Assembly: GCA_048938445.1 (NCBI GenBank)
Contig: JBHLME010000138.1
Span: 1 to 11,495 of the forward strand
Source: Promethearchaeota archaeon
Lineage (GTDB): Archaea > Asgardarchaeota > Lokiarchaeia > Sigyniarchaeales > SOKP01
DNA length: 11,495 nucleotides
Direction of reading: 5' to 3'
Positions within the stretch are counted from its first letter, which is position 1, and each line of letters starts with the position of its first letter. The notes under the pieces were generated by a model. The model had not been told where the DNA came from. It searched no databases and worked only from the letters and a program-made list of their open reading frames with translations. Shown one piece after another: positions 1,006 through 11,495 of the stretch. Both the position numbers and the translations under genes were made by a program.

Positions 1006-2196
1006 ATGAGCATGTATTTAGACAATCAGGCAGCAAAACCAATGGATCCTCGAGTATTTGAGGCGATGAAACCGTATTTTATGAAAGAATTTGGTAATCC
1101 CTCATCATTGCATCAATATGGTTTTACAGCTACTAACATTTTGGATGAATCCAGGCAAAAAGTAGCAAATTTCATCAATGCCTCTAGTTCTGATAATATT
1201 ATTTTTACTTCGGGAGCAACTGAATCGAATAATTTAGCAATTATCGGAGGAGCTTTACGTAATATAAAAAAAGGAAATCACATGATCATATCGGAAATTG
1301 AACATATATCAATTTTAAACATTGGTAAGTATTTAGAACGTCAAGGTTTCAAGGTGAGTAGGGTTCCTGTAGATAGATTTGGAATTGTTAATCTCAGTAA
1401 GTTAGAGAGATTAATAAATGATAAAACAGTATTAATATCTATTTCTACAGCAAGTAATGAAATAGGTTCCCTTCAACCCGTAGAAGAAATTGCTAAATTA
1501 GCAAATGAGCATAAGATTTGGTTTCACTCTGATGCTGTTGCCAGTGAAGCTACAATCCCTCTTGACGTACAGAAAGTACCTTTTGATCTATTAACTCTAT
1601 CATCCAATGATATTTATGGACCTAAAGGGGTTGGAGCATTATATCTAAAAAAGGGAATAAGAGTAAATCCTATTCTCATTGGAGGGGGACAAGAGAGTGG
1701 GATGAGATCTGGGTCTGAAAATATGCCAGGTATAGTTGGTTTTGCTAAAGCAGCTGAAATTATGAAAGAAGAAATGAAAAATGATGTTTCAAAAATAAAA
1801 CCTCTTAGAGATAAATTAATACAAGAAATTTTAAAAATACCTAAATCATATCTAAATGGACATCCCGAGAAAAGAACACCAGATAATTTAAATGTTAGGT
1901 TTGATTATATCGAGGGAGAATCATTGCTTTTATCATTGAAAGATGAGAATCTTGCTGTGGCATCAGGTTCGGCTTGTAGTTCAAAGACATTAGAACCCTC
2001 TCATACCTTAATGTCTTGTGGTCTTTTGCATGAAGAAGCACATGGGAGCTTACTATTAACATTAGGAAGATTTACAGAAGAGAAGGATATTGATAAAATC
2101 ATAGAAGTTTTACCCGGAATTGTTAAACGGTTGAGAATTTTATCACCACTTACCCCTTCAGATTTATTAAAACAACTTCAAGAGGAGGAAAATTAA
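1006..2196 (+). CDS. iscS: IscS/NifS-like group I cysteine desulfurase homologue lacking the PLP-binding lysine (probably not an active desulfurase)
   Basis: Motifs YLDN, FGNPSS, FTSGATESNN, EH, NEIG, YGPKGVGAL, GGGQE, RSGSEN and ASGSACSS (Cys codon 1975-1977). The canonical SxHK reads SSND (1600-1611). ATG 1006 with GAGGT at 991-995 is preferred over GTG 997. Confidence 0.93.
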   Translation: MSMYLDNQAAKPMDPRVFEAMKPYFMKEFGNPSSLHQYGFTATNILDESRQKVANFINASSSDNIIFTSGATESNNLAIIGGALRNIKKGNHMIISEIEHISILNIGKYLERQGFKVSRVPVDRFGIVNLSKLERLINDKTVLISISTASNEIGSLQPVEEIAKLANEHKIWFHSDAVASEATIPLDVQKVPFDLLTLSSNDIYGPKGVGALYLKKGIRVNPILIGGGQESGMRSGSENMPGIVGFAKAAEIMKEEMKNDVSKIKPLRDKLIQEILKIPKSYLNGHPEKRTPDNLNVRFDYIEGESLLLSLKDENLAVASGSACSSKTLEPSHTLMSCGLLHEEAHGSLLLTLGRFTEEKDIDKIIEVLPGIVKRLRILSPLTPSDLLKQLQEEEN

Positions 2197-3114: not shown

Positions 3115-5493
3115 ATGAAACGAGTAATTATTGTTGGTGGAGTAGCCGGAGGAGCTACTGCTGCTGCAAGATTAAGACGCCTTGAAGAAAATATTGAAAT
3201 TATTGTTCTTGAAAAGGGACTATATGTATCTTTTGCTAATTGTGGTCTTCCTTATTTTGTTGGAAATGTGATTAAAGACCGTGAACAATTAGAATTAATG
3301 ACACCTGAAACTTTTTTCAAACGATTCAATATTGATGTTCGGGTGCAACATGAAGCGATTGAAATTAATAAAGAAAATAAAGAAATTACTGTAAAAAACT
3401 GGAAAATGGACAATGAATACACTTTAAATTATGATTATTTAATTCTTTCTCCAGGAGCATCACCAATGATACCACCATTTAAGGGTCTTGATATGGTTCC
3501 TTCGTTTTCTTTACGAACTATTCCTGATTCGGTTAAAATTAGGGAATTCGCAGAAAAAAATAACGTTAAACACGCTACAATCATAGGCGGAGGATATATA
3601 GGTTTAGAAATGGCTGAAAACTTAAAAGAACGTGGTATTAAAGTAAAAATCATTGAAATGCTTGATCAAGTATTAGCACCCCTTGATAAAGAAATCGCTC
3701 AATTTGTGCACCAAGAACTAATTCTTAATTGTGTTTGTCTTCAATTAGGAGATGCTGTCGATTCTTTTGATTGTGAAAATCAATGTAACTACATCATACC
3801 TAAAAGCGGTAAAAAAATAGAAACAGATATGATTATCATATCAATTGGGGTGCAACCAGAAACAATTTTAGCAAAAGAAGCAAGACTTGATTTAGGTCCT
3901 AAAGGACATATTATAGTTAATGATAAGATGCAAACCTCAGATCCATCTATTTATGCTGTAGGAGATGCCATTCAAATAAAAAATTTCATCACTAATGATT
4001 TTACAGCAATACCTTTAGCGGGCCCAGCAAACAAGCAAGGAAGAATAGCTTCGGATAACATTGCAGGTCGAGATTCTAAATATAAAGGGGTTTTAGGAGC
4101 TTCAGTTCTAAAAGTATTTGATTTGACAATAGCATTTGTAGGTTTAAGTGAGAAACAAATAAAAGAAACTCAAATCAATTATGAAAAGATCTACGTGCAT
4201 CCGAATAATCATGCAGGATATTATCCAGGAGCAATCCCCATTACATTAAAATTATTATTTGAAATACCTAGTGGTAAGGTCTTAGGAGCTCAAGCCGTGG
4301 GAGGTCCCGGTACAGAAAAGCGCATTGATGTTATCTCAACTGTTATTAAATTTGGTGGCACTGTTTTTGATTTAGAGGAATTAGAACTAACTTATGCACC
4401 TCCATATGGATCAGCTAAAGATCCTGTTAACATGGCGGGTTTTGTAGCATCTAATGTCCTCAGAGGAGATCATCCAATTTGGCATTGGAATGAGTTAGAA
4501 GAGATAAAAAAAAATAATAGCATTATTATTGACGTGAGAACACCGGAGGAATATCAAGTGGGTACCATTGAAGGAGCAAAAAACATAAATGATTTGGAAC
4601 TGAGAGATAGAATAAACGAAATCCCAAAAAATAAGCACATATATGTCTTTTGCGAGGTAGGTTTTAGGGGATATTTAGCAGCCCGTTTTCTAATGCAAAA
4701 AGGATATGAGGTGAGAAATTTAAGTGGAGGATATAAACTTTATGAAATAGCGAAAGCTACGACAGAAGAAATTGCAGCTGCTTGCGGACCTTCAGAGGAA
4801 ATTATGGAAGAAATGATTGAAACAAAATCCACGGTCTCGGATGAATTTATAGAAGTTGATGCATGTGGATTATCATGTCCTGGTCCTTTAAATGCAATGA
4901 TCAAAAGTCTCGAGTCATTACCAGAAGGAAAGAAATTGAAAATTTACGCAACAGATCCAGGATTTAAAGCTAGTGTGGAAGCGTATGCGGAACTTAATGA
5001 AGCCATAAAATTACTATCTCTTAAAAAAGAGCAAGGAAAATTAGCTGCAGTTTTAGAAAAGGGTGATATAACTGTAGAAGAAGTAAAAGCTCCAGTGCAA
5101 ATTAAAAAGAAAACTAGAAGTGAATCAAGAGATCCTAATGCTCCTCCTCTCTCAGATATTAGTGCAGAGGAATTACACGAACGAATGAATTCAGAAGATG
5201 CCCCCGCAATATTAATTGATGTACGTTCTCCTCAAGAATATTATAGTCCTTCGGGTCATATAAAGAATACTAAATTAATGCCATTAGGAGATTTAATGCA
5301 TAATCTCGAAGCTATCAACGATTATAAGGATAAGGAAGTAGTAATGATATGCCATAGTGGATCGCGTTCCATGATGGCTTCTCAGCTTTTAGCAAGAGCA
5401 GGATTTAAGGACGTGAGAAATTTAACGGGAGGTATGATGATGTGGCATAGAAAGGGTTATCCTATAGAAGGAGTTCCTAAATATCAGTATTAA
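3115..5493 (+). CDS. FAD-dependent CoA-disulfide/persulfide reductase (CoADR/Npsr/CoAPR family) with C-terminal rhodanese, TusA and second rhodanese domains
   Basis: GGVAGG FAD motif, SFANC43GLPY redox Cys, GGGYIGLE NAD(P)H motif, GDA and YAPPYG. Rhodanese 1: IDVRTPEE...FC513EVGFRG. TusA domain: VDAC584GLSC588PGP...TDPGF. Rhodanese 2: IDVRSPQEY..GHI...IC746HSGSRS...NLTGGM..W. Confidence 0.92.
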   Translation: MKRVIIVGGVAGGATAAARLRRLEENIEIIVLEKGLYVSFANCGLPYFVGNVIKDREQLELMTPETFFKRFNIDVRVQHEAIEINKENKEITVKNWKMDNEYTLNYDYLILSPGASPMIPPFKGLDMVPSFSLRTIPDSVKIREFAEKNNVKHATIIGGGYIGLEMAENLKERGIKVKIIEMLDQVLAPLDKEIAQFVHQELILNCVCLQLGDAVDSFDCENQCNYIIPKSGKKIETDMIIISIGVQPETILAKEARLDLGPKGHIIVNDKMQTSDPSIYAVGDAIQIKNFITNDFTAIPLAGPANKQGRIASDNIAGRDSKYKGVLGASVLKVFDLTIAFVGLSEKQIKETQINYEKIYVHPNNHAGYYPGAIPITLKLLFEIPSGKVLGAQAVGGPGTEKRIDVISTVIKFGGTVFDLEELELTYAPPYGSAKDPVNMAGFVASNVLRGDHPIWHWNELEEIKKNNSIIIDVRTPEEYQVGTIEGAKNINDLELRDRINEIPKNKHIYVFCEVGFRGYLAARFLMQKGYEVRNLSGGYKLYEIAKATTEEIAAACGPSEEIMEEMIETKSTVSDEFIEVDACGLSCPGPLNAMIKSLESLPEGKKLKIYATDPGFKASVEAYAELNEAIKLLSLKKEQGKLAAVLEKGDITVEEVKAPVQIKKKTRSESRDPNAPPLSDISAEELHERMNSEDAPAILIDVRSPQEYYSPSGHIKNTKLMPLGDLMHNLEAINDYKDKEVVMICHSGSRSMMASQLLARAGFKDVRNLTGGMMMWHRKGYPIEGVPKYQY

Positions 5494-5524
5494 TTTTTAT
5501 ATGATATAATTTAAAGAATTATAA

Positions 5525-5533
5525 TTTTTTTTT
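5525..5533 (+). terminator. Oligo-T tract, candidate terminator after the reductase gene
   Basis: T9 run about 30 nt after the stop, in the gap between convergent genes. Confidence 0.3.
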
Positions 5534-5590
5534 AAATTAGATTTATAAGATATTAATATTTTTAAAAAGAGCATGAGGATTAAAAATAAT

Positions 5591-6619
5591 CTATTTATAT
5601 TTTGATTTTTCAATATATTTTAAGAGCTTATTATGATATTTTATTTTTCCAATTTTTCCCTTTTTCAAATATTCTTTTTCTATCTTATATTTTTTTTTGT
5701 AATTATCTTCAATCAATGAATGAGTAAGGATTGCAAGCATCATTGATACTTCAGCAAATAAAGTAAACCATTCAGTACTTGTAATTGTAAGTCCGAATTC
5801 CGAGAAACTTTCAGGAAAATATGGAGAAAGAAAAAATAATAAATAAAATATGCACATAATACATGCTAAGAATGCATGAGATCTTGGAACCTTATTATTT
5901 AGATATGATATTAAACCATAAAGAGAAAAAAAAGTTAAACCCCCTAAAAAGTAAAAAATCGCAGCAATAACATGATAAATCCTTAAATTTTCAGGAAAAA
6001 TACCAACCAAAAAAATACCTAAAGTTAAAGCTACATTTGATAATGCCATTAATTTTATTATTTTTTTTTGATTCACCTTTTTTTTCAATTTTTGAATCTC
6101 AAAAACATGGAAAAATAAGATTATACCACTTGAGATGATCCATCCTGTATTAAATACAATATTTGCGCCATTTGGACCGACTCCTAAATCGCTAATAAAA
6201 TTTTGAAAGATTGAATAATTAGGATTTATATTAAGATATAATATTACAGCTGTTAAAGTTGAAATTATAAATAGAATTATACCTATGAATCCAAAAATAT
6301 CACCAGGAATTTTCTCATAAACCTCCTCAAAGAAATGATCAATTTTTTTATCAATTTTAATCAACCAATCATCAATTTCAATTAATAAATTTTCAAATTT
6401 GGCTAATATAGTTAATTCTTCTTTATCATTAGCTCCACTTTTAGACTTATTATCATAATATTTATTTAATTCCTCCCTATTTTCATTAAAATTTTTGAAA
6501 ATTTGTTTTAATTTAAGAGCATCTTCTTCATTTTTTTCTATAATTGCTTGTCGATATCTTAATTCTTTAATTTTGTTTTCTGATTTATTTATTAATTCAT
6601 TATGTTTGCTTTCAGCCAT
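5591..6619 (-). CDS. DUF998/Frag1-like 6-TM membrane protein with an N-terminal coiled-coil region (paralog 1)
   Basis: About 100 aa of charged helical N-terminus, then six hydrophobic segments. Motifs YSIFQNFISDLG, FN.G, GIFPE..HVIAA..F and EW are typical of DUF998. Confidence 0.72.
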   Translation of the reverse strand: MAESKHNELINKSENKIKELRYRQAIIEKNEEDALKLKQIFKNFNENREELNKYYDNKSKSGANDKEELTILAKFENLLIEIDDWLIKIDKKIDHFFEEVYEKIPGDIFGFIGIILFIISTLTAVILYLNINPNYSIFQNFISDLGVGPNGANIVFNTGWIISSGIILFFHVFEIQKLKKKVNQKKIIKLMALSNVALTLGIFLVGIFPENLRIYHVIAAIFYFLGGLTFFSLYGLISYLNNKVPRSHAFLACIMCIFYLLFFLSPYFPESFSEFGLTITSTEWFTLFAEVSMMLAILTHSLIEDNYKKKYKIEKEYLKKGKIGKIKYHNKLLKYIEKSKYK

Positions 6620-7105: not shown

Positions 7106-8122
7106 TTATTTCGAGAGGTTAATTTTAATTTTAGGTTTAATAATTCCAAGATCTCTAATATTTTCTCTTTCTTTTTCAAATTTTCTTAAATTAAGGTCTT
7201 CAGCTATAGAATGTCTCAATATTGTAAGCATCATTAATATTTGAGCGATAAAAGTTAACCATTCTAAACTGGTTATAGTTAACCCTATCTCAGAAAATGA
7301 TTCAGGGTAATATGGAGATATAAAAAAAGCAATATGACATGCATATGTAAAATAAGCGATTATAAAGTGAGTAAATGGAATTTCTTTATATAATACTGCT
7401 AATATCGCATAATATGAAAAGAATCCAAAACTACCTAAAAAGTAAAATTCTACGCCAATGACGTGAAACACAAATAAATGTTCCGAAAAAATTGCGACAA
7501 AGCAGATTCCTAATGAAAAGGAGATATTTGATAATGCCATTAATTTAAATATGTAATTTCTATTAATTTTTTTTTTTAATTTTTTAATTTCATAAATATT
7601 AAAAAATAAAAACATCATGCTTGAAATTATCCATCCAGTATTAAATACAATACTTGCTTGAATTGGACCAATACCTAGATCACTAATCCAATTATTAAAG
7701 ATAGAATATTCGGGATCAATATATAGATACAATGCTAATGCTAAAAATGTTGAAAATGCATAAATCATAATTCCTAAAATTCCAAAAAAATATCCCGGGA
7801 TTTTATCATAAACATTTTCAAAGAATTGATTAATTTTTTCATGAATTTTTTTTTCTTTATCAATCTGTTTAGATTTTAATACCTCAAATCTTGAAAAAAC
7901 AGTTGATGCTTCCATATCATCAATTTTACCTTTAAAATGTTTCACATTATAATCATGTAGACTCTCTCTCTTTTCATGAAGTCCCTTTAACAGAAGTTCA
8001 AGTTTGTTAGTATCTTCTTCAACTTTTTCTATAACTATTTGATGATTGCTAGTTTGTTTAGTGCTATCTTGAGATTTATTCATTAAATTCTTGTTATTAC
8101 TTACAGTCATTTTGTTTATCAC
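7106..8122 (-). CDS. DUF998/Frag1-like 6-TM membrane protein with an N-terminal coiled-coil region (paralog 2)
   Basis: Colinear with paralog 1: FFENVYDKIPG, YSIFNNWISDLGIGP, IVFNTGWIISS, KLMALSN and SPYYPESFSEIGLTITSLEW. The start is uncertain (GTG 8122, ATG 8110 or ATG 8083). Confidence 0.72.
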   Translation of the reverse strand: MINKMTVSNNKNLMNKSQDSTKQTSNHQIVIEKVEEDTNKLELLLKGLHEKRESLHDYNVKHFKGKIDDMEASTVFSRFEVLKSKQIDKEKKIHEKINQFFENVYDKIPGYFFGILGIMIYAFSTFLALALYLYIDPEYSIFNNWISDLGIGPIQASIVFNTGWIISSMMFLFFNIYEIKKLKKKINRNYIFKLMALSNISFSLGICFVAIFSEHLFVFHVIGVEFYFLGSFGFFSYYAILAVLYKEIPFTHFIIAYFTYACHIAFFISPYYPESFSEIGLTITSLEWLTFIAQILMMLTILRHSIAEDLNLRKFEKERENIRDLGIIKPKIKINLSK

Positions 8123-8361: not shown

Positions 8362-9120
8362 TCAGAAAATGTATGGTATGAGCGCTTTTCTCTTTTTTGG
8401 ATAATCTGAAAATGTTTTTAAATACCATATATGGTTGCTTCTTGCCCGAGGAGTAAGATTTGCAAAAGTCCATATTGCAAAAATTAATCCTGGGAGTGAC
8501 CAGGTCATTATTGCCCAGCCAAACCATTCTGTTATCTCACCTAAATAGCTAGGACAACTTACATATTCAAACATCCCCCCATAAGGGATTTTAAAACAAG
8601 TCTCACCAGGTTTTCGTAATTTACGTATAATACGATCAGAAACTAGATGTATAATGAAACCATGAAAAAATAATATGATTCCTATAATAAATGCAGGATT
8701 CAACAACCAACTTGTTTCATAACCTCCAGATAGTGTATTTATCCATCTTCCTTGGAGAAATACATTTATCGAATTGAATATCATCCCAGAAATCACTATA
8801 GACAGTGGCATTGGATTATTACCTCTCATCAATTTCGGAAAAATGAAAGTTCGATAGCTATAATGCATTAAAAATAACGTGGAAAACAAAATTATTACTG
8901 GATAGAAATGATATTTGCCTATAATATAAAGGATTATATATAAAATGATAGCGGGTGATTCCATTAATACCCAACCTGTTTTATCATTGATTGTTTTACC
9001 TGAAGTTTTCATAAAGTGCTGACCATACCCTGCTGTTACTTTAAATAACGAGAAAAAGATAATAATTGCAGGAATAAGTATGAGAATCATTAAACAATTG
9101 AAATAGAATATCTCTTCCAT
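8362..9120 (-). CDS. 3-oxo-5-alpha-steroid 4-dehydrogenase (steroid 5-alpha-reductase, SRD5A1/2/DET2-like), paralog A
   Basis: AGYG, GWVLME54SP, HY87SYR, SD..IR.LRKPGE..FKIP.GG.FEYVSCP.YLGEI.EW.GWA, RA..H.WY and C-terminal YPKKRKALIPYIF. Confidence 0.92.
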   Translation of the reverse strand: MEEIFYFNCLMILILIPAIIIFFSLFKVTAGYGQHFMKTSGKTINDKTGWVLMESPAIILYIILYIIGKYHFYPVIILFSTLFLMHYSYRTFIFPKLMRGNNPMPLSIVISGMIFNSINVFLQGRWINTLSGGYETSWLLNPAFIIGIILFFHGFIIHLVSDRIIRKLRKPGETCFKIPYGGMFEYVSCPSYLGEITEWFGWAIMTWSLPGLIFAIWTFANLTPRARSNHIWYLKTFSDYPKKRKALIPYIF

Positions 9121-9384
9121 TTTTTATAGCACTTAAGTCGTATTAAGGAATATTTATTAAATTTTCGTCTATTTTTTGATTAATACTAATATAATTATAA
9201 TTATTTATTATTACATTTAATCTTAACAAAAAAAGGAATTTTTCATTAAAAAGATGAAAAATTTATGTGATAATATTAGTTGTTTTTTTTATTCTAATTT
9301 ATTATCATAAGTTTTATAGATAGGCTGATATATTGTTATTTAATAGTGAATTCAATTTTTAAAAACATTTTAAAAGGTGAAAAC

Positions 9385-9975
9385 ATGAAAGAAACTCCTA
9401 AAAAGTTATTTACAGCCTATGTGGGGGAATCCCAAGCTAGAAATCGCTATACTTTCTGGGCTAAAATTGCTAAAAAAGAAGGTTATGCTCTAATTTCAAA
9501 CGTCTTTTTAGAAACTGCGGATCAAGAATTACAGCATGGAACATGGTTTTATACAATGCTTCAACAATTTAAAAAAGAAGAGTCTTTCGATGAAATGAAG
9601 GTTTTACCCGACGCAGAATTTCATACAACATTCGGAAACACCATTGAAAATTTAACATCTGCAATCGCAGGAGAAGACATGGAATGGAAAACGCTTTATC
9701 CCGATATTGCTGATACAGCAGATAAAGAAGGATATCCAGATATTGCTACTAGAGTAAGAGCAATTATAAAAGCAGAAAAACATCATTCCGAGAGATATGG
9801 AAAACTCCTAAAATTGGTTGGAGATGACGCATTCTTCAAAAGAGGGAAAAAAATCGTATGGGTTTGCATGGAATGTGGATATGAGGTCGAAATGGACGAA
9901 ATACCAAAAAATTGGAAATGCCCTTCCTGTGACCATCCTAGAGCAAATTTTCGAAAGAAATGCGAAGAATTCTAA
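9385..9975 (+). CDS. rbr: Rubrerythrin
   Basis: AYVGESQARNRY, ETADQELQHG, AIAGE..E...LYP and AEKHH di-iron motifs, plus a C-terminal rubredoxin-like CMEC...CPSC. ATG 9385 has AGGTGA (9375-9380) upstream and is preferred over GTG 9346, giving 196 aa. Confidence 0.95.
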   Translation: MKETPKKLFTAYVGESQARNRYTFWAKIAKKEGYALISNVFLETADQELQHGTWFYTMLQQFKKEESFDEMKVLPDAEFHTTFGNTIENLTSAIAGEDMEWKTLYPDIADTADKEGYPDIATRVRAIIKAEKHHSERYGKLLKLVGDDAFFKRGKKIVWVCMECGYEVEMDEIPKNWKCPSCDHPRANFRKKCEEF

Positions 9976-10154: not shown

Positions 10155-10913
10155 TTAGAAAATAAAAGGAATTAGTGCTTTTCGGTCTTTTGGATAATTA
10201 GAAAATGTCTTTAGGTACCATTTATGATTACTTCTTGCTCGAGGGGCAAGATTGGCGAAAGTCCATATTGCAAAAACCAATCCAGGAAGTGACCAAGTCA
10301 TGATTGCCCACCCAAACCATTCTGTTATTTCGCCAAGATAACTAGGACAACTCACGAATTCAAACAACCCTCCACGAGGGATTTTAAAACCTGTCTCACC
10401 AGTTTTCCGTAAATGCCTTATGATTCGATCTGATGTATAGTGAGTAAAAAAACCCATAAAAAATATTATTATCCCTACAAAGAATATAGGAGATAATAAC
10501 CAACTTATTTCATAACCACCTGATAAAGTATTTATCCACCTTCCTTGAAGGTATGCATTTGCTGTATTGAATAACATCCCCAATATGATAATCGATAATG
10601 GCATCTGATGCTTTCCTCTGATTAATATTGGAAAAATGAACGTTCGATAACTATAATGAAATAAAAATAACGTGGAAAATAAGATCGTTACTGGTTTGAA
10701 ATGATAATCTCCTATAATGTAAAGAATTAAATAAAAAATTACAACAGGAAATTCCATTATTATCCAGCCAGCTTTGTCATTGATAGATTTCCCCCATTTT
10801 CTTGTAGTATGTTGACCATAACCTGCTGGTATTTTAAGTAGCGTTATAAAGACTACTATTGCAATTACAATCATGATTATCATAAACAAGTTGAAGAATA
10901 AAATCTCATCCAT
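10155..10913 (-). CDS. 3-oxo-5-alpha-steroid 4-dehydrogenase (steroid 5-alpha-reductase-like), paralog B
   Basis: Same motifs as paralog A and the same length (252 aa). A manual ungapped count gives about 182/252 (72%) identity. Ends YPKDRKALIPFIF. Confidence 0.92.
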   Translation of the reverse strand: MDEILFFNLFMIIMIVIAIVVFITLLKIPAGYGQHTTRKWGKSINDKAGWIIMEFPVVIFYLILYIIGDYHFKPVTILFSTLFLFHYSYRTFIFPILIRGKHQMPLSIIILGMLFNTANAYLQGRWINTLSGGYEISWLLSPIFFVGIIIFFMGFFTHYTSDRIIRHLRKTGETGFKIPRGGLFEFVSCPSYLGEITEWFGWAIMTWSLPGLVFAIWTFANLAPRARSNHKWYLKTFSNYPKDRKALIPFIF

Positions 10914-11163
10914 TTTTTAGTGCGGATTAGTTGTAGTTTCACATATAGATTCTATAAGAACATTGATAATTTATACTTTTATCAATTTATTTGATTAATC
11001 TTAAGAAATTTCAATAGATTCAATATATACTCTTAGAATCGGAATTTATTAATTTAAACTTACAAATAAAAATGTCTAAAGAGGTTTTAATTTAAAAGAA
11101 CAATTCTTAAATATCATCGCGTTAATTTACACTCAACAAATTCAAGTTATTTGAGTGTTAAAA

Positions 11164-11495
11164 ATGAAACAAAAAGAAATTTATAAATGTAATGTCTGCG
11201 GAAAGATCATTGAGATTTTGAATCCTGGCGCTCCTGAAACCATTTGTTGTGAACAACCAATGCAATTGATGGAAGAACAAACTGCAGATTGGAAAGGAGA
11301 AAAACATGTTCCTAAAATTTCAATTGATGGAAATAATGTAATGGTTGATATTGGTATTTCAATGGGCACTCCACATCCCATGACCGAAGAACATTGGATA
11401 ATGTGGATTGAACTCTTATGTAAGGGTAATTGTTATAAACGTAAGTTTTTAAATCCTGGTGACGAGCCAAAAGCAACTTTTGTTGTCGCCGATAC
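11164..11495 (+). CDS. dfx: Desulfoferrodoxin (2Fe superoxide reductase), 3'-truncated by the window edge; not in the ORF track
   Basis: Manual translation gives MKQKEIYKCNVCGKIIEILNPGAPETICCEQPMQLMEEQTADWKGEKHVPKI...PHPMTEEHWIMWIEL...FLNPGDEPKATF. This has the desulforedoxin CxxC...CC centre and the EKHVP / HPM.EEH SOR centre. Confidence 0.95.
   Translation, partial: MKQKEIYKCNVCGKIIEILNPGAPETICCEQPMQLMEEQTADWKGEKHVPKISIDGNNVMVDIGISMGTPHPMTEEHWIMWIELLCKGNCYKRKFLNPGDEPKATFVVAD

Follow-up and report, generated by a model that had tools for sequence, protein, structure and literature searches.

The contig JBHLME010000138.1 of a Promethearchaeota archaeon, which is 11,495 nucleotides long and is referred to here as the window, carries at positions 1006-2196 a gene for an IscS-family protein in which the lysine that binds pyridoxal 5'-phosphate (PLP) as a Schiff base is replaced by aspartate. 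Going by its sequence, this gene (IscS* in what follows) very probably encodes a non-catalytic partner of the scaffold protein IscU. The type is already known from Archaeoglobus fulgidus, and the window gene is a further member of it from an Asgard archaeon. Genes of this kind are found beside genes for the sulfur carrier TusA and, less often, for DsrE-family carriers, and we lean slightly towards the full statement, i.e. that IscS* is an inactive IscU partner of the A. fulgidus type which would obtain its sulfur via TusA/DsrE. The delivery of sulfur through TusA/DsrE, taken by itself, has in our judgement an even chance of being correct. The interest of the case is moderate and comes mainly from this sulfur-relay hypothesis, which is testable. 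The window (contig C84) has a G+C content of 29.5% and belongs to a 4.6-Mb genome in 256 contigs, with a completeness of 96.5% and a contamination of 8.2%.

A lysine-less IscS of the A. fulgidus type

The reading frame 997-2196 is open throughout, and its translation contains LTLSSNDIYGPKG, HSDAVASEA, AHGSLLLTLGR and ASGSACSS. An initial annotation of the same DNA had started the protein at GTG 997. The frame is indeed open from there, but the translation start is probably ATG 1006, because the 120 closest homologues are mostly 396-397 amino acids (aa) long and one of them, identical to the window protein, begins with MSMYLD; the aspartate is then residue 202. The gene and its diagnostic codons are as follows.

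1006-2196, + strand: lysine-less IscS of the A. fulgidus IscS2 type, 396 aa from ATG 1006 (PF00266; PDB 4eb5_A, E 3e-145)
1540-1542, + strand: Ala codon GCC replacing Gln183 (translation, alignments)
1609-1611, + strand: Asp codon GAT replacing the PLP Schiff-base Lys, E. coli K206 and A. fulgidus D199 (translation, alignments)
1975-1977, + strand: retained mobile-loop Cys codon TGT, E. coli C328 and A. fulgidus C321 (translation; SGSAC motif)
2053-2055, + strand: Leu codon CTA replacing the substrate-binding Arg354 (translation, alignments)

All four residues had been singled out by the initial annotation, and the codon positions that it gave for Asp, Ala and Leu are correct. Gln183 and Arg354 are active-site residues of the E. 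coli enzyme, Arg354 binding the substrate carboxylate. The equivalence of the substituted residues with the catalytic ones holds in three alignments, one with A. fulgidus IscS2 and human NFS1, one with a canonical IscS paralogue and one with the 150 cluster representatives described below. The A. fulgidus IscS2 chain reads SSND, DATA and GTLLLTLGR at the equivalent places, i.e. it has the same Asp/Ala/Leu substitutions; human NFS1 reads SGHK (isghkiygpkg), DAAQ (daaqavg) and SSIRFGIGR (ahssirfgigr), and a canonical IscS paralogue from the same genome (51% identity) reads SGHK, DAVQ and GSIRITMG. None of these alignments places a lysine of the window protein at the K206 position. In other words, the S-x-H-K motif with the Schiff-base lysine is absent from the window IscS, which has SSND instead (Asn codon AAT at 1606-1608, just before the Asp codon), and the residue signature of the protein is HNDASNDSCL.

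The rest of the fold is intact, as had been proposed. The class V aminotransferase family PF00266 is matched over the full length (259.5 bits against a cut-off of 21.5, residues 6-367 of 399), and the frame has no internal stop. The desulfurase equivalogs of NCBIfam stay below their cut-offs, with 466.9 against 530.75 bits for TIGR03402 (NifS), 418.5 against 643.2 for TIGR02006 (IscS) and 415.1 against 548 for NF010611. The best match in the PDB, again at full length, is A. fulgidus IscS2 (4eb5/4eb7/4hvk), which is present alone in 4HVK and together with IscU D35A in 4EB5 and 4EB7; 4R5F is the Lys variant of the same chain.

The replacement is strongly conserved. Among the 120 nearest homologues (71-100% identity) the sequence SSN followed by an acidic residue is found in 119, with Asp in 108 and Glu in 11, and the search pattern for SSN[D/E] was unmatched in the one that remains. 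These homologues carry the names of Promethearchaeota, Thor-, Hermod-, Hod-, Heimdall- and Odinarchaeota. The pairwise ratio of nonsynonymous to synonymous substitution (dN/dS) is 0.063-0.121 in four of five pairs, figures that are rough since dS is about 1.5, close to saturation; the fifth pair (L023) yielded no dS estimate. An alignment of 22 lysine-less sequences shows no variation at T72, H100, D176, S199 and C324, which correspond to Thr76, His104, Asp180, Ser203 and the loop Cys.

In a wider sample, made up of 150 representatives of clusters at 50% identity, 134 have Lys in the Lys column and 16 lack it. Across these representatives the loss of Lys co-varies with the loss of Gln183 and Arg354: those with lysine almost all have the combination Q...K...R, and those without it have A or another residue at 183 and L, V, Q or E at 354. 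A FastTree phylogeny places the window IscS in an all-lysine-less clade of 16 of its 149 tips (support 0.988). A larger tree, from which 13 near-identical Asgard loci and open reading frames (ORFs) shorter than 330 aa were omitted, likewise has an all-lysine-less clade with the window IscS (33 of 235 tips, support 0.991). Most members of the lysine-less clade have Asp or Glu at the Lys position and a few have Ser, Ala or Pro. A. fulgidus IscS2, which is in neither tree, would belong with this clade judging by its match to the window protein (E 3e-145). Matches in an Asgard-wide search, counted irrespective of their residue at the Lys position, occur in 341 of 400 genomes and in 126 of the 134 from the family of the window's host. 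Three observations go beyond the initial annotation: the substitutions mark a whole clade, the clade is regularly found beside TusA/DsrE, and the genome keeps a canonical IscS.

The canonical gene is one of eight matches to the class V family in the genome. It lies on another contig (C135), is followed by a 127-aa IscU, and scores 528.6 bits with TIGR03402, i.e. 2 bits under the cut-off. Two other class V matches that were examined are an aminotransferase and SepCysS, and the genome has one SufB-like gene. Besides the lysine-less cassette, then, the genome encodes a SUF-like scaffold and a normal route by way of a desulfurase, and since a canonical IscS-IscU pair is present, the lysine-less pair is not the sole route and can be specialised. 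The public names of the homologues are 'cysteine desulfurase (family protein)', the very miscall that the initial annotation had predicted, and this is a trap for metabolic reconstructions of Asgard archaea, which would count two cysteine desulfurases where one exists.

A. fulgidus IscS is described as a paralogue that has Asp199, is inactive and binds pyridoxamine 5'-phosphate (PMP), the D199K variant being PMP-bound as well (PMC8918507). The statement in the initial annotation that this protein has Asp and no desulfurase activity agrees with PMC8918507 and PMC7585200, and the window protein would, by analogy with this reported homologue, be inactive too. In the A. fulgidus complex a Cys of IscS is the fourth ligand of the [2Fe-2S] cluster (PMC13066941, PMC7585200), and how [2Fe-2S] assembly proceeds on IscS-IscU without a desulfurase function is posed as an open question (PMC8918507). 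The two systems are alike in the Asp/Ala/Leu substitutions, the retained loop Cys and the IscU gene next door. Unlike that of A. fulgidus, the window IscU has an extra and apparently degenerate NADPH-type domain, and a canonical IscS is encoded in the Asgard host as well. Neighbouring TusA and DsrE genes are recorded here for the window, and A. fulgidus is compared by its IscS and IscU. Methanosarcina acetivorans IscS1, encoded in isc1, also lacks the Lys, and a mode of action like that of A. fulgidus IscS has been suggested for it; the organism has an active IscS2-IscU2 pair in addition, and IscS1 is described as uncharacterised, having formed inclusion bodies (PMC7585200). This coexistence of a lysine-less and an active pair, for which IscS1 is compared by its published description, parallels the two pairs in the genome of the window.

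Association with TusA and DsrE

On the + strand IscS* is preceded by genes for TusA and DsrE and followed by those for IscU and a reductase fusion. These neighbours, and two redox genes further downstream, are listed below.

343-597, + strand: TusA sulfur carrier (Pfam PF01206, E 4e-18; ORF listed from TTG 334)
615-971, + strand: DsrE-family sulfur carrier, 118 aa (Pfam PF02635/PF13686, E about 3e-13; Cys79 in VCEAS)
2196-2996, + strand: IscU scaffold with a putatively degenerate thioredoxin-reductase NADPH-type domain (Pfam NifU_N, E 7e-46)
3115-5493, + strand: flavoprotein-rhodanese-TusA-rhodanese fusion, 792 aa, the flavoprotein resembling coenzyme A (CoA)-disulfide/persulfide reductase (Pfam Pyr_redox_2, Rhodanese in two stretches, TusA)
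9346-9975, + strand: rubrerythrin, a recurrent neighbour of the cassette (Pfam)
11155-11493, + strand: desulfoferrodoxin (superoxide reductase type), running off the window end, also a recurrent neighbour (Pfam)

The relatives of the TusA protein align from its residue 4, which corresponds to ATG 343, and the active-site Cys lies within GLFCPEP. The start of iscU (2196) overlaps the stop of iscS. The window thus has a TusA-(DsrE)-IscS*-IscU cassette, with tusA less than 3 kb from a lysine-less iscS and iscU following.

The generality of this arrangement was assessed by scanning metagenome contigs with the lysine-less alignment and classing each IscS in the loci (L009-L112) by its residue in the Lys column. 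The resulting sample has 33 lysine-less loci (18 close Asgard and 15 more distant ones) and 68 lysine-containing loci with similar amounts of flanking DNA. A hidden Markov model (HMM) built from Pfam-verified TusA proteins finds TusA within 3 kb in 30 of the 33 lysine-less loci, as against 0 of the 68 lysine-containing ones. Two of the exceptions (L024 and L084) are contigs that start inside iscS and have no upstream DNA; the third, L025, is taken up below. IscU is present in 31 of the 33 lysine-less loci, i.e. in 18/18 of the close and 13/15 of the distant ones.

The absence of TusA from the lysine-containing loci was confirmed in several ways. When the TusA search of these loci was relaxed, its best hit had an E-value of 1.7, and the CPxP (G..CP.P) motif was absent. 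Pfam recognised TusA in 16/16 of the candidates submitted to it and in none of 150 out of 153 small ORFs beside lysine-containing IscS genes; the scan omitted two from L112, and the third was covered by a separate scan. These small ORFs include IscA (9), the NifU C-terminal domain (3), ThiS (2) and IscU. For ORFs longer than 125 aa beside lysine-containing IscS genes, TusA and DsrE were checked by the locally built HMMs only. The neighbours of lysine-containing IscS genes number 508 ORFs, and a Pfam tally of the first 150 shows IscU, MnmA, Rrf2 regulators and ThiI; it gives the 25 commonest families only and thereby bounds TusA at two or fewer.

DsrE is found within 3 kb in 11 of the 33 lysine-less loci and in one of the 68 lysine-containing loci (L050). 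The local DsrE HMM had missed the latter protein (L050:7980-8300, E 0.049; Pfam 2.6e-9), hence the count of one and not zero. The cysteines of both carriers are conserved: the Cys-Pro motif is retained in the TusA alignment, and Cys79 of DsrE is invariant in 11/11 DsrE proteins beside lysine-less IscS genes.

Gene order is conserved as well. In the Asgard loci a TusA orthologue stands directly upstream of the lysine-less IscS, and in the 15 of them with enough sequence the order is TusA, IscS*, a long IscU and, 0.2-3.5 kb further on, the reductase fusion, after which rubrerythrin and desulfoferrodoxin often come. Two lysine-less loci outside the main clade, L069 and L088, both have TusA and DsrE, so that the link with TusA is not merely one inherited gene order. 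An adjacency by chance is unlikely because the entire 4.6-Mb genome has only seven TusA matches. A predicted complex of IscS* with TusA scored 0.00 in a run made without controls and carries no weight for or against binding. A literature search, with subscription journals mostly outside its reach, found no publication on a link between TusA and lysine-less IscS.

The source of the sulfur and competing explanations

IscS* is expected to be unable to remove sulfur from cysteine with PLP. The kept pocket, with the equivalents of His104, Asp180, Thr76 and Ser203, would fit a non-covalently held PMP or PLP, as reported for the A. fulgidus protein. The protein would act as the dimeric partner of the co-encoded IscU, with its loop Cys accepting a persulfide and/or completing, as a fourth ligand, the coordination of the [2Fe-2S] cluster while it forms. 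Sulfur would flow from the TusA persulfide (TusA-SSH), with the participation of DsrE, to the loop Cys of IscS* and on to IscU, i.e. cysteine would not be its source. Loading or reduction of the persulfide may, in this lineage, be the task of the CoA-persulfide-reductase-rhodanese-TusA-rhodanese fusion. Each of these sulfur-transfer steps, and its direction, is what we infer.

The proposed direction is the reverse of that from IscS to TusA in E. coli. The E. coli IscS-TusA complex (PDB 3LVJ) involves the same two families and a persulfide shared between the loop Cys of IscS and the Cys of TusA, but there the IscS is active and has its lysine, and TusA receives the persulfide that this enzyme generates from cysteine. 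In the window the flow would run opposite because IscS* would be unable to make a persulfide, and none of the lysine-containing loci sampled has an adjacent tusA (0/68). A similar group of carriers, i.e. TusA, DsrE-family and rhodanese proteins with conserved cysteines beside a machine that uses sulfur, is described for sHdr sulfur oxidisers (PMC11094781); in those organisms the sulfur goes to a dissimilatory complex resembling heterodisulfide reductase, whereas in the window the acceptor would be an iron-sulfur assembly pair. The minimal iron-sulfur (MIS) system of archaea (MisS-MisU) is likewise a two-gene pair of an IscS-like and an IscU-like protein and is described as able to use sulfide (PMC13066941). 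MisS is described as a cysteine desulfurase (PMC13066941), whereas the lysine-less subgroup is without the catalytic residues and adds TusA/DsrE. Neither IscA nor an Rrf2-type regulator, ISC accessory genes that do occur near lysine-containing relatives, was found within 3 kb of the lysine-less pair in the loci scanned with Pfam.

It is tempting to regard TusA-DsrE-IscS*-IscU as a distinct, cysteine-independent route of iron-sulfur assembly that in Asgard archaea would be fed by the NAD(P)H-linked CoA-persulfide reductase fusion, though we rate this somewhat below an even chance. If true, such a route would answer the published question about the sulfur source of A. fulgidus IscS-IscU. The pairing with TusA/DsrE in any case provides a hypothesis, testable at the bench, for how an A. 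fulgidus-type IscS-IscU could build clusters without a desulfurase.

Several points weigh against the explanation of IscS* as an inactive IscU partner supplied by TusA/DsrE. L025, labelled Thermoplasmatales, has sequence on both sides of its lysine-less iscS and has IscU, but neither TusA nor DsrE lies within 3 kb, and a helix-turn-helix regulator is found upstream where TusA would stand. In the lysine-containing locus L050, DsrE is 1.8 kb away, and the contig also bears a partial lysine-less IscS. Among the close loci DsrE occurs only in the window and in L023; DsrE is not essential to the unit, because most close Asgard relatives are without it. The figure of 30/33 comes mostly from one clade, and the independent lineages number at most about three. 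Adjacency by itself gives no direction of sulfur flow: TusA could equally well take sulfur from IscS* or belong to a different pathway. For A. fulgidus, free sulfide was put forward as the source by those who studied the protein, and sulfide needs no carrier (PMC8918507). Finally, the inactivity is that of one characterised homologue, matched at E 3e-145.

The L050 contig is an observation in its own right. It has the lysine-containing IscS at 4998-6167 and, 4.4 kb on, the start of the lysine-less IscS-like gene (10521-11146), as well as a gene resembling CoA-disulfide reductase (CoADR), so the two types of IscS can be neighbours.

The main rival is the published scaffold model with sulfide only. 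In this model IscS* merely holds IscU and lends it a Cys ligand, free sulfide from an anoxic, sulfidic habitat is the source of the sulfur, and TusA/DsrE are adjacent for some other reason, such as the buffering of persulfide or a part in tRNA thiolation or in making the molybdenum cofactor. A Cys ligand combined with sulfide is what was proposed for A. fulgidus IscS (PMC8918507, PMC7585200), the DNA runs that best match the stretch are sediment metagenomes, and both the dispensability of DsrE in most close relatives and the locus L025, with a lysine-less IscS and IscU but no TusA, fit the model. It leaves unexplained why TusA is found in 30/33 as against 0/68 loci, two of the lysine-less lineages with TusA being separate from the main clade, and why conservation extends to the loop Cys as well as to the cysteines of the carriers. 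We therefore consider the sulfide model rather unlikely as the explanation of the window cassette.

Less probable still is that the cassette serves iron-sulfur repair or sulfur salvage under oxygen stress, with the canonical pair doing the housekeeping. This explanation says when the cassette would act, not how, and is compatible with the relay from TusA. It is suggested by the neighbouring genes: within 6 kb, rubrerythrin occurs in 11/18 close Asgard and 3/15 distant lysine-less loci and desulfoferrodoxin in 7/18 and 3/15, respectively, as against 0/68 lysine-containing loci in both cases. At L049, L051 and L085 the cassettes (TusA-DsrE-IscS* with a short IscU) stand amid genes for rubrerythrin, ferritin-like proteins, desulfoferrodoxin, glutaredoxin and ferredoxin-thioredoxin reductase, the glutaredoxin and a ferredoxin-thioredoxin-reductase subunit being found at L051. 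The second, canonical IscS-IscU pair in the genome would also suit such a division of labour. On the other hand, most distant lysine-less loci are without such genes, in the window they are 6-9 kb away and partly behind genes on the opposite strand, and the sequencing runs listed for the stretch include no RNA run.

About as improbable, or slightly more so, is that IscS* is still an enzyme which uses non-covalent PMP or PLP, with Asp or Glu in place of Lys, for another sulfur or selenium reaction or for slow desulfuration. PMP-dependent enzymes without the Lys exist. The invariance of the His104, Asp180, Thr76 and Ser203 equivalents and the acidic replacement among the closest relatives, Asp in 108 and Glu in 11, are in accordance with such a function, as is the crystallisation of the A. 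fulgidus protein with PMP (PMC8918507). The same protein is described as devoid of activity as a cysteine desulfurase, and PMP was bound by its D199K variant too (PMC8918507). Moreover, Arg354 and Gln183 have been lost along with Lys, and the occurrence of Ser, Ala or Pro at the Lys position in some members of the clade argues against a catalytic acid.

Decay of the gene, or an error of assembly or sequencing, has practically no chance of explaining the substitutions and is refuted by the conservation data: the 396-aa frame is intact, the same residues recur in 119/120 homologues from many assemblies, dN/dS is about 0.06-0.12, and a single miscalled base cannot account for the aspartate because the change from Lys (AAA/AAG) to Asp (GAT) takes two base changes. 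The initial annotation had argued for selection on the same grounds of a well-preserved frame, and the conservation data bear it out. Neighbouring stretches are matched exactly by contigs of another study, one run giving pieces identical over 996-1576 and 1624-1971 and another piece being identical over 1918-2068; no variant is listed at 1606-1611, where no listed independent contig piece spans the codon 1609-1611. Several short contigs of high depth around 2140-2210 differ from the window and have an extra A behind 2194; these are taken to be the conserved iscS-iscU junctions of other organisms. Nothing in support of decay or error was found, the contamination of 8.2% of the host metagenome-assembled genome being the one point to set beside it.

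The IscU partner, the reductase fusion and other genes

The IscU protein of the window consists of two parts. Residues 1-130 match archaeal IscU (PDB 7c8m and 4eb5_C, the latter being the partner chain from A. fulgidus), and the ligands, three Cys, the Asp and the His, are all present. For residues 149-262 the match is to enzymes of the thioredoxin-reductase type, namely to their NADPH domain (2zbw_A, E 7.5e-8). A structure model of the protein (mean predicted confidence, pLDDT, 75) compared with Foldseek recovers both folds, i.e. the scaffold and the NADPH-type domain at about 145-266. In the alignment of the long IscU proteins the extra domain shows 'VVDSGDES' and 'YTEIPN' at the presumed sites of two features of thioredoxin reductases, the glycine-rich loop for the dinucleotide and the pair of redox cysteines. 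Going by these positions, the domain lacks both and would be degenerate. Cys140 in the linker is invariant in 9/9 long IscU proteins. The long form is found in the Asgard loci and in L038, L044, L047 and L048, and the other lysine-less loci have the short one.

The reductase fusion starts 118 bases after iscU. It is found within 6 kb in 16/18 close Asgard loci, as against 1/15 of the distant lysine-less loci, and is a lineage-specific accessory neighbour. It scores 527 bits with TIGR03385 (the CoADR equivalog), under the cut-off of 578.8. The Cys motifs SFANCG, CEVGFRG, CPGP and CHSGSRS, one per domain, were read by eye, and we assume them to be the active sites of the respective families. In its composition the protein resembles a persulfide reductase that depends on NAD(P)H and has carrier domains of its own.

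Pfam scans of three related Asgard loci show an additional gene between iscU and the reductase; its product, of 377 aa, is HdrD/GlpC-like and combines two CCG domains with a 4Fe-4S dicluster domain. Its positions are given below; in the window it is absent from between iscU and the reductase fusion.

L011, 8000-9133, - strand: 377-aa CCG/4Fe-4S protein (Pfam)
L013, 7875-9008, - strand: 377-aa CCG/4Fe-4S protein (Pfam)
L023, 2714-3850, + strand: 377-aa CCG/4Fe-4S protein (Pfam)

Elsewhere in the genome, the SepCysS mentioned above, an enzyme of tRNA-dependent cysteine synthesis, is encoded on contig G000:C80 (L005, 1297-2523, - strand) and scores 499.8 bits, above its cut-off. For an organism capable of tRNA-bound Cys synthesis, it may be of advantage to assemble iron-sulfur clusters without drawing on free cysteine, and a cysteine-independent route, if it exists, would fit organisms that encode SepCysS and are able to make cysteine in this way. 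Adjoining the canonical iscS-iscU pair is an ORF (L001, 3182-4108, - strand) that is interrupted by a masked run (X).

Four further genes of the window are on the - strand. Two paralogous proteins of about 340 aa (5591-6619 and 7106-8122) combine a charged N-terminal half with a DUF998-like membrane half, and only the one at 5591-6619 reaches Pfam (E 1.7e-7). Two paralogous membrane proteins of 252 aa (8362-9120 and 10155-10913) flank the rubrerythrin gene and belong to the steroid 5-alpha-reductase family (PF02544), a family that is unusual for an archaeon and is here duplicated within one window.

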